From the NCBI RefSeq assembly GCF_016026235.1, contig NZ_CP065613.1: a DNA stretch of 64,000 nucleotides, one strand, 5' to 3'. A program made the position numbers. Source of the stretch: Escherichia coli. GTDB lineage: Bacteria; Pseudomonadota; Gammaproteobacteria; Enterobacterales; Enterobacteriaceae. Numbering within the stretch: position 1 is the first letter of the stretch; each line of letters starts with the position of its first letter. This document shows, in pieces, positions 45,001 through 48,000 of this stretch.

Positions 45001-48000
45001 GCGGAAACAGTCTCAATATGAAAACACTTCTGAGACTCGCTATATAGCAGAACATATAAGTCAGCTGAGGAAGCCATGAAAAAGTTCGAAAACATAACTG
45101 TTCTCCATGTTGATGACTTTGATTATACAAACCCGGAACTTCTCCCGGAGGTTGTAAAGGCAATAGATGTTGCCGATATAGTGATTAGAGGAAAGAGAAT
45201 TGTCAAAAACAGGCTCGCATGTACTTCAGGAGCAATGACAGAAACAACCTCACAGCAAGATGATTGGAGCCTGATTCATTTGCGGTAAATGTTTATCATT
45301 TATTGCATGCAACACAGGTGTTACATACGTCCAGTAATAACGAAACAAAAACACTTGGCAGTGAAATTCTGAATTTTGCATGTGAATATGCAAAAACCGC
45401 TGTTGAAAAAGAATTAGCGCAATAACAACAAATATGCCCTGAACGTTTATTGCGGTTTTATCGCCGGGGATTGTTACAACCTTAATCCACAGGAGGCTTT
45501 ATTATGACTTTTATAAAGAATATGGCATCACACAAGACCGCCAGCCTTATTGCACAATACGGTGAAAATTACATGCATATTGCCTGCTTATTTCTGCGTA
45601 AAGCATACGGGAAATAACAAATGACACATGAACCCATTAATACATATCGTCGCCGTATAGCTGTTGCGGCACTCCATCGAATAAAACGTAAAACAGGTAG
45701 TGATCTGCTTATTGTTGACCTTCTGGATGGGAACATTACGACCATAGAAATAACAGAACAGTTTATAAACCAGTTGCTGTTGCGCTTTGAAGGTATTACC
45801 CGTGGTGAATTGGGTCGAGTGGAGGGTGAAACAGAAATCCGAACTGCATACCAGAATGCTATCGGGATTAATCAACATACTGAATACCAGGCTGAAACCG
45901 GAAAGTTAATTATAGACAACCTTTTACAAGAGGTTATTGATTACGCGAAAGAAAAATATATCAGCGGAGGAATTAACTGATGGCTAATTTATCCCCTGTA
46001 TCTGTTGTGCACGAAAAAGTGCAGATCGTTATGACAATTGAAAATGGCCAGGTAACAGATGTCTGCAAAGTCCGCGATGGAGAGCTGATTGCCAGCATGG
46101 ATACATTCATACGGCTGGCAGAAAGAGCGGGGTATCAGATAACAGCACCTGCTCAGGAGGAAACCAGTGACATTAACAGCAACACGAATTCCTGAGTGGG
46201 TCCACCAGCAGGCGTTGCTGGTCCTGCGGCGGTACAGATGCCGACGTATATTCCCGCATCGGATACAGCGCAACGGATATCTCAGTCTGAAGGTTAACCG
46301 TCGCTGGCGGCTGTTATCGAAAGACGACGGCCGGAACTGGGAAGTAATGAGTCATGAACGTTATTCGGGGGAAATAAAGAAATGATCGACAACCGCACCG
46401 CCAGCGCCATTGACCAGGCATTACAGAAACATGATACACCCGTCGGCCCGTTATTTTTTGTAACACGCCACGAAAGAACAAAAAATGCCTCACCCGAAAA
46501 ACGGCAATTCGTTACCTGGCATTCTTTATGACCACCCGCGCTTTTGAACGTTCAGGATTCCGACAACGCCATCCTGACAAGCGTTTTATCTTCAACGGGA
46601 ATGAGATATGGAAACGTGGAGAATCAACCACAGAGTATACCCGCGCACACCAGCGAACAATCAGACGACTGCGCAGACTCATCGCCAGGAAACAGTATAC
46701 AGAAAAATGGTTCAGAAAATATGACACATGGAGCGCCGGATATTACGAACTGATGGCAACAAAACCATTCTGACGTAAACGAAATTAACCATGACGCAAT
46801 TAAATAAGGCAAGCCGAATACATCAGGAGGACCATGAACATTTATTTCAGAATAGTTATATCACTGGCAATTATCGCATGTATTTACGGATTAATCGTTC
46901 CGGCCCTCATATCAATGAAGGATACGGTAGCAGTGATTTCTGGCTTTGCTCTGGCGTGTCTGACCCCGCCCTGCATTTATGCCATTTATAAGGGTCTTTC
47001 TTTCCCCAGGAGGGAAAAATGAAAAAAACAATTGCGCTTGTTTTCGCGGTCAGTCTGGCTGTCTTCGGACTTGTAGGTTGCGATCGCGTTGAACCAGGTA
47101 ATGTGGGTATCAAAGTCAACAAACTGGGCGACGACAAAGGTGTCGGTGAAGTGGTCGGTGTTGGTCGCTACTGGACTGGCTGGAATACTGAAGTTTACAT
47201 TTTCCCGACCTTCAAGCAAATGAAGACCTACGATGAACCGTTCAGTTTCCAGATGAGTGACGGCACAACCATCGGCTATCACATCGGCGTGGCCTACAAA
47301 GTTGATCCATCCAAAGTTACCACGGTGTTTCAGACTTACCGCAAAGGCGTGGATGACATTACCAACACCGACCTGCGCCAGAAGATCGCCGACGCACTCA
47401 ATCGGCTGGCCAGCAAAATGACCACCGACAAATTTATTGACGGCGGCAAGTCTGAACTACTGGATGCCGCACTTAAAGACATTCAGGAAGAGATGACACC
47501 CATCGGCATTCAGGTAATGAGCCTCTCTTATGTAGGTAAACCGGAATACCCTCCAACCGTTATCGACAGCATTAACGCCAAAGTCACGGCAAACCAGAAA
47601 ACCCTGCAGCGCGAACAGGAAGTCAAGCAACGTGAAGCGGAGGCCAACATGCTACGTGCGGAAGCTGCCGGACAGGCTGATGCCATTCGAACAAAAGCCC
47701 AGGCAGAAGCCGATGCCATTCGTTTACGCGGCGAAGCTCTACGCCAGAACCCAGGCGTCATGGAGCTGGAAGCCATCAACAAGTGGAACGGTACACTGCC
47801 GCAATACATGACCAGTGGTGTGAGGTAGCCTGAGTTTAACGGACACTCCTTCCTGAAATAGAATGGCATCAGAAGGAGCTAATAATGAGCAGAAAAACCC
47901 AACGTTACTCTAAAGAGTTCAAAGCCGAAGCTGTCAGAACGGTTCTTGAAAATCAACTTTCGATCAGTGAAGGCGCTTCCCGATTATCTCTTCCTGAAGG

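Follow-up and report, generated by a model that had tools for sequence, protein, structure and literature searches.

A ParE-like gene with variable neighbours in the early-left operon of a lambdoid Escherichia coli prophage: a possible stand-alone phage effector

The 64,000-nucleotide (nt) stretch of Escherichia coli DNA analysed here (RefSeq GCF_016026235.1, contig NZ_CP065613.1), hereafter the window, carries a lambdoid, Fels-1-like prophage, and positions 45504-46773 are part of the early-left operon of that prophage. A first-pass annotation had described this segment as a chain of six translationally coupled small open reading frames (ORFs), the fourth of which specifies a 72-amino acid (aa) protein likened to RelE/HigB toxins. 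ORF positions and junctions were taken from an ORF listing and the raw sequence, and all six ORFs were found where they had been placed (Table 1). The 72-aa protein is a member of the Pfam family PF24732 (ParE_like), and comparison with related genomes and phages shows that its gene behaves as an independent cassette.

The overlaps described for the chain are present at all junctions but the first. ORF2 and ORF3 share 1 nt at 45980 (TGATG), ORF3 and ORF4 overlap by 29 nt (46167-46195), ORF4 and ORF5 by 4 nt (ATGA, 46382-46385), and a second ATGA joins ORF5 to ORF6 (46528-46531). ORF1 and ORF2 do not overlap and are separated by a 3-nt gap (TAAcaaATG). Several strong Shine-Dalgarno sites had also been noted, and canonical sites indeed precede ORF1 (AGGAGG, 45491-45496, spacer 7 nt), ORF3 (GGAGG, 45966-45970, spacer 9 nt) and ORF4 (AGGAGG, 46155-46160, spacer 6 nt). 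The sites of ORF2 and ORF5 are weaker and G-rich, and the raw sequence has none at the start of ORF6. All intact ORFs of the chain are under purifying selection and conserved as coding sequence. The ParE-like gene has a ratio of nonsynonymous to synonymous substitution rates (dN/dS) of 0.13-0.32 wherever dS is unsaturated, and the proportions of nonsynonymous (pN) and synonymous (pS) differences are 0.3-0.57 and 0.63-0.9, respectively, for the ORF2 and ORF3 families, named F119 and F71 after the lengths of their products.

Table 1. Features of the chain and of the adjoining control region (window coordinates)
Feature	Position	Strand	Description
ORF1	45504..45617	+	37 aa; conserved microprotein gene
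ORF2 (F119)	45621..45980	+	119 aa; phrog_1737
ORF3 (F71)	45980..46195	+	71 aa; phrog_340 (5e-25); variable insert, flanked by F119 and the ParE-like gene
ORF4 (ParE-like)	46167..46385	+	72 aa; GTG start; PF24732; phrog_1525
ORF5	46382-46531	+	49 aa; fragment of phrog_1886 gene
ORF6	46528-46773	+	81 aa; fragment of phrog_1886 gene
ORF5 + ORF6 (F130)	46382..46773	+	one 130-aa gene, phrog_1886; frameshift-inactivated
A6 homopolymer run	46480..46485	+	frameshift site, from pairwise alignment
S24/LexA-type cI-like repressor gene	43610-44341 (ORF)		upstream of the chain; likely start at the Met of MKSLGERL, ~43685
Candidate oL/pL operator cluster	44361..44439	+	between the cI-like repressor stop (44341) and the gene at 44444
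149-aa XRE-type helix-turn-helix protein gene	44444-44893	+	first early-left gene

The six ORFs represent five genes. One 393-nt coding sequence (WP_000566773.1, 130 aa) stands in the place of ORF5 and ORF6 in E. coli TD225-C4 and RMDEC364. Pairwise alignment shows a run of six A residues in the window and seven in TD225-C4, i.e. a 1-nt deletion, which is present relative to RMDEC364 as well. ORF5 covers positions 1-35 and ORF6 positions 50-130 of the phrog_1886 profile, and the ATG of ORF6 is the internal Met50 of the intact protein. The gene is intact in relatives, the closest E. coli one included, so ORF5 and ORF6 do not meet at a true gene boundary. The exact 49-aa product occurs on 4 other public contigs and the exact 81-aa product on 52; over 1000 contigs have the 130-aa protein intact. 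With identical fragments on other contigs, the deletion is probably a true feature of a minor lineage and not a sequencing error, although a recurrent homopolymer error is possible. Programmed -1 frameshifting at the slippery-looking A_AAA_AAT was considered and set aside: relatives have a plain intact A7 ORF, so a deletion is the simpler reading. The two ORFs shorter than 60 aa that the first-pass annotation pointed out thus differ in kind, the 37-aa one being a genuine gene and the 49-aa one a mere fragment.

The 72-aa protein matches PF24732 over profile positions 1-65 of 67 with 64.8 bits against a cut-off of 24.4 (E 7.4e-18); all 30 aligned homologues match the same family, and the match to phrog_1525 is 5.6e-29. 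The C-terminal motif from which a RelE/HigB-like identity had been proposed is present as quoted, and PF24732 membership places the protein in the RelE/ParE superfamily. It is by its fold and its family that the protein is related to toxins, and the guess made from the motif was essentially correct. Public names already point the same way: PGAP applies the name "ParE family toxin-like protein" to WP_012816785.1 and WP_071779488.1, both close relatives, the exact 72-aa sequence has been deposited as "ParE-like toxin domain-containing protein", and homologues in other phage records are labelled "mRNA interferase" or "HigB-like protein". Direct sequence comparison with characterized toxins yields little. 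A PDB search with the protein and with a 30-sequence profile gave nothing meaningful (sole match FGF8, E 0.64), 30 family members scanned permissively against Pfam gave no secondary match to the HigB, RelE, ParE, YoeB or Gp49 families, PF05016 was not matched even at E values up to 10, and NCBIfam and PADLOC gave no match for any small ORF of the chain.

An AlphaFold2 model built from the 30-sequence alignment has a mean predicted local distance difference test score (pLDDT) of 92.7 and the order beta1, alpha1, beta2, beta3, beta4, alpha. The compact alpha/beta fold and its similarity to solved toxins identify the protein as a RelE/ParE superfamily member at the fold level, and solved ParE structures rank below RNase-type toxins in similarity to the model. 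An exhaustive hidden Markov model (HMM) search of 1.84 billion cluster representatives recovered 129 clusters (50% identity), nearly all of them single-domain proteins of 60-90 aa. A16 and R48 do not vary among 50 diverse members (21-54% identity), and V43, L49, H63 and Y66 are each kept in at least 90% of them. The catalytic residues of YoeB are E46/R65/H83/Y84. RNase-type relatives of RelE, in contrast to ParE gyrase poisons, have an Arg on the central strand and a His and a Tyr that follow the last strand. The R48/H63/Y66 layout may therefore serve as a lead towards the RNase type. Low-probability hhalign alignments run in the same direction: NGYLSLKVNRRWRLL falls opposite SGFWSRRITEEHRLV of YoeB, with R48 facing the Arg of "HRLV" (YoeB R65), and WEVMSHERYS falls opposite REVMTHKEYD of E. 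coli HigB. The start position of the gene is kept in 34 loci (ATG in 23, GTG in 11). On more than 1000 public contigs the gene is annotated as a 40-aa form from residue I33 (MQRNGYLSL...), equivalent to window positions 46263-46385; this looks like a start-site artefact and not a truncation.

The neighbours of the ParE-like gene were compared at 34 genomic loci from different species, at 4 more obtained by exact look-up and in phage records, with neighbouring genes classed by iterated HMMs. The order in lambdoid prophages is the 37-aa gene, F119, then no, one or two copies of F71, the ParE-like gene, and finally F130, an unrelated 169-aa or 193-aa gene, or another gene. About 20 of the 34 loci have F71 and about 12 lack it; L015 and L030 carry two divergent tandem copies of it between F119 and the ParE-like gene (3546-4029 and 3603-4029, respectively). 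F71 also resembles the C-terminal part of the anti-repressor family phrog_4792 (E 2.3e-5). F130 occurs in 19 loci, and unrelated genes occupy its place in many others.

Beyond these loci the associations are looser. The ParE-like gene is found in 68 phage records and F119, mapped in the phage collection by tblastn, in 20; about 50 of the 68 ParE-like carriers lack F119, and 16-17 of the 20 F119-bearing phages also have the ParE-like gene. In Fels-1, Fostie and YP3, F119 apparently occurs without it, Fels-1 showing a clean F119-F71-F130 order. The genes flanking distant ParE-like homologues are unrelated ones in Serratia, in Cedecea and in Klebsiella spallanzanii, and likewise in Sortsne, a P22-like phage without an annotated integrase. 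On T7-like contigs the gene belongs to the early region and lies close to ArdA; gaps of 72 nt and 262 nt separate it from the adjacent genes, neither of which abuts it. These metagenomic contigs (L049-L051) represent an integrase-bearing T7-like phage, with the PF24732 member at 2501-2719, between ArdA and the integrase and RNA polymerase genes.

The conserved C-terminal tail of F71 (...GTDSNTNS) is encoded by its last 29 nt, a stretch that in a different frame supplies the Shine-Dalgarno site, start and opening codons of the ParE-like gene. At two loci without F71 (L019 and L022), it is F119 that gains the GTDSNTNS-type tail; the ParE-like cassette thus carries its own translation start wherever it is inserted. 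In Pseudocitrobacter faecalis (L014, 3623-4222), F119 and the ParE-like gene form one 199-aa in-frame ORF with no intervening stop, either a natural fusion or an assembly frameshift.

None of the neighbours looks like a known antitoxin. F119, F71 and F130 have no match at all in Pfam, NCBIfam or PADLOC, and a PDB sequence search with F119 and F71 found none, in line with the earlier statement that the neighbours are not obvious helix-turn-helix antitoxins. The F119 model (pLDDT 73) resembles generic helical bundles only and unspecifically. The toxin-antitoxin (TA) arrangement that the first-pass annotation implied finds no support in these comparisons: neighbours are variable or absent, none is consistently linked to the ParE-like gene or obligate, and the chain lies in an apparently repressed pL operon. 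The adjacent, co-inherited antitoxin that defines a type II system is not seen, given the variable neighbours, the Fels-1 order and the T7-like contigs.

Control of the operon may reside in the repressor region upstream. The candidate operator cluster contains three RGTATCA half-sites, including an inverted pair (44395-44409 and 44425-44439). Such half-sites are clustered both just upstream of the repressor gene (43632-43662) and at 44370-44438, and a 17-nt repeat is common to 43622-43638, upstream of cI, and 44361-44377. The clusters that flank the repressor gene are likely to be oR and oL. The palindromic operator pattern TGATAC-N7-GTATCA is not enriched in the window, so the operator assignment draws on the half-site clusters and the repeats. 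If these are oR and oL, transcription from pL would first enter the 149-aa XRE-type gene, at the position of N in lambda, and continue into the chain. Between 44444 and 47100 a scan found no + strand terminator and no promoter above shuffled expectation; promoter-like sites number 7 against 8.0 expected, none of them well placed, though a consensus scan can miss a promoter. Because the chain lies downstream of the likely oL/pL, the repressor probably holds it silent in lysogens.

Taken together, the facts fit a stand-alone early phage gene better than a TA pair. The favoured reading, to which a probability of roughly 45% is assigned, is that the 72-aa protein is a stand-alone early effector, probably a ribosome-dependent RNase of the RelE type, that is silenced in lysogens by the repressor and not by an antidote. 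The operon would start at pL/oL right after the repressor gene, and with such a start the protein would be made only after infection or induction. Expression would be restrained by the phage repressor, as for lambda kil, and not by a protein antitoxin. With R48, H63 and Y66 kept on its RelE-type scaffold, the protein is most plausibly an mRNA endonuclease; it would be a small, ribosome-associated one that aids host takeover or shut-off early in the lytic cycle.

Several points weigh against this reading: i) F119 is upstream at about 33 of the 34 lambdoid loci and could be a lineage-specific partner; ii) the model has a single N-terminal helix and lacks the second helix of canonical toxins, so the protein may be a non-catalytic derivative; iii) hhalign comparison with E. 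coli HigB, YoeB and RelE yields short matches with probabilities of 2.7% at most (HigB 2.7%, YoeB 0.2%), which are hints only; iv) the Pfam family is named after ParE, not RelE; v) short repeats are the whole basis of the operator and pL assignment; and vi) a missing integrase annotation in Sortsne is no proof of a strictly virulent lifestyle. A wider proposal, possible but on the whole doubtful, is that PF24732 as a family consists of antitoxin-less minimal RelE-type nucleases of unrelated phages (lambdoid, P22-like without annotated integrase, and T7-like), which would act in early host shut-off or against host defence and be controlled by the timing of transcription alone.

The alternative that survives best, though an unlikely one, is that the protein is a non-toxic derivative of the RelE/ParE fold that binds the ribosome or RNA without cleavage, has a regulatory role, or interferes with host TA or defence systems. 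A length of only 72 aa together with the absent helix would suit such a protein, as would the lack of a match to solved toxins even by profile and the cautious NCBI name "toxin-like"; the presence of the gene without a partner in several phage types would be tolerated most easily if its product were harmless. What speaks for activity is that R48, H63, Y66 and the WRLLS strand are conserved throughout the family at what may be the positions of the catalytic residues in RelE-type nucleases. Moreover, phage early genes are often toxic without any antidote, lambda kil being an established example.

Slightly less probable still is a true type II or three-component TA module, in which the 72-aa toxin would be paired with a new type of antitoxin (the 71-aa, the 119-aa, or, in HigBA order, the downstream 130-aa protein) and serve prophage stabilization or defence. 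The fold does come from a toxin superfamily, the junctions are tight on both sides (the 29-nt and 4-nt overlaps), F119 is nearly constant upstream in lambdoid loci and usually accompanied by the ParE-like gene in phages, and the single ORF of P. faecalis joins the two. Partner swapping is, besides, common among TA systems. Each candidate antidote nevertheless fails somewhere: F71 is missing or doubled, F130 is often replaced, most phage carriers lack F119 and the T7-like contigs have no adjacent partner at all. The neighbours have no recognizable DNA-binding or antitoxin domain, PADLOC detects no system, and the consensus scan found no separate promoter for a gene that lies inside a pL operon. 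In the window itself a broken F130 sits beside an intact ParE-like gene, which is unexpected if F130 is the sole antidote, unless the operon is silent. The remaining idea, a DNA gyrase poison of the ParE type as the Pfam name would have it, is considered very improbable. ParE poisons have an N-terminal two-helix hairpin, compared with the single helix of the model, and lack the RNase residues that R48, H63 and Y66 may represent.

Apart from the ParE-like gene, the chain begins with a genuine, widely conserved microprotein. Homologues of ORF1 with a shared stop position occur in 30 loci across many enterobacterial genera, with the consensus MxFIKDKxAY+TAxLxAxxGxxxIAxLYL+KAYG+, and in comparison with the window their median pN is 0.33 and pS 0.82. 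The product looks like a helical hairpin ending in LYL+KAYG+. PGAP does not annotate ORF1 in the two E. coli relatives checked (L001 and L040), and other pipelines have called it; the omission matters for annotation.

The prophage sits beside yecN-cmoA-cmoB-torZ in a chromosome of the E. coli/Shigella type and is in decay, with insertion sequence (IS) copies and frameshifts. The whole stretch of the chain is matched in 106 complete E. coli genomes (megablast). The opposite strand carries a cro-like gene, Rha, ash and replication genes. The order downstream in relatives is a 62-aa membrane protein, an SPFH protein, ORF6N, DUF4222, xis and int, followed by yecN, cmoA, cmoB and torZ. Homologues of the early genes of the prophage are also present in Fels-1. 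The gene for the 62-aa membrane protein (phrog_1130, 46834-47022) overlaps the SPFH/Band 7 gene (47019-47828) by 4 nt, and this pair, directly 3' of the chain, is kept in E. coli relatives. Upstream, two overlapping + strand ORFs (45076-45288, 70 aa, and 45264-45425, 53 aa) correspond to positions 1-68 and 69-121 of phrog_5451 and make up a further split gene within the operon; PGAP annotates the second half only in E. coli relatives. A pair of 100-aa and 272-aa ORFs is present in three copies that are 99.7-99.8% identical (36818-37974, 47885-49041 and 51477-52633), one of them directly after the SPFH gene of the prophage. From the OrfA sequence these are presumably IS3-family elements of the IS600 type. 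This abundance of IS copies suggests that the genome is Shigella-like or that of an enteroinvasive E. coli.

The PF24732 family is recognized in databases but uncharacterized. No paper mentioning it and no experimental characterization was found, and a 2025 mBio survey of RelE/ParE toxins includes the "ParE-like" family PF15781 and not PF24732. As the gene, the family and the fold assignment are already public, the advance is modest. For annotation, it consists in the reduction of a six-ORF chain to five genes, one of them a homopolymer frameshift pseudogene. In a broader sense, PF24732 emerges as a small branch of the RelE/ParE superfamily whose genes travel among the early regions of phages with no constant antitoxin beside them. 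If the protein is an active nuclease, phages would have turned a toxin fold against the host, with repressor control in place of an antidote, and caution would be needed before every prophage gene of RelE/ParE fold is called a TA system. Were the reading as an antitoxin-less phage nuclease true, it would add an "offensive" phage use of a fold known mainly from TA modules.

Among known proteins, the 72-aa protein is a direct member of the group represented by PF24732, phrog_1525 and the RefSeq "ParE family toxin-like protein", with no difference from it. It appears to share with the ribosome-dependent mRNA interferases RelE, HigB, YoeB and YafQ (BECR fold) the conserved central-strand Arg and the His and Tyr after the last strand, and it has short local similarity to the beta2-beta3 hairpin of YoeB and the C-terminal strand of E. 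coli HigB. It differs from them in its size (72 aa compared with 84-104 aa), the missing second N-terminal helix, the lack of a significant sequence match and of a conserved adjacent antitoxin, and its place within a long phage operon instead of a two-gene autoregulated module. Two RelE/ParE-family modules of phages or prophages, PaaR2-PaaA2-ParE2 of E. coli O157:H7 and gp49/gp48 of phage N15, come with a defined antitoxin, and the regulator PaaR2 has a promoter of its own (described in part in PMC8630535); no such partner or promoter was found at the 72-aa gene. Kil-type genes of lambda have an unrelated fold and presumably an unrelated target. They nevertheless offer a possible parallel in genetic setting: a small early-left gene under repressor control, any toxicity of which would be restrained by the prophage repressor and not by an antidote.

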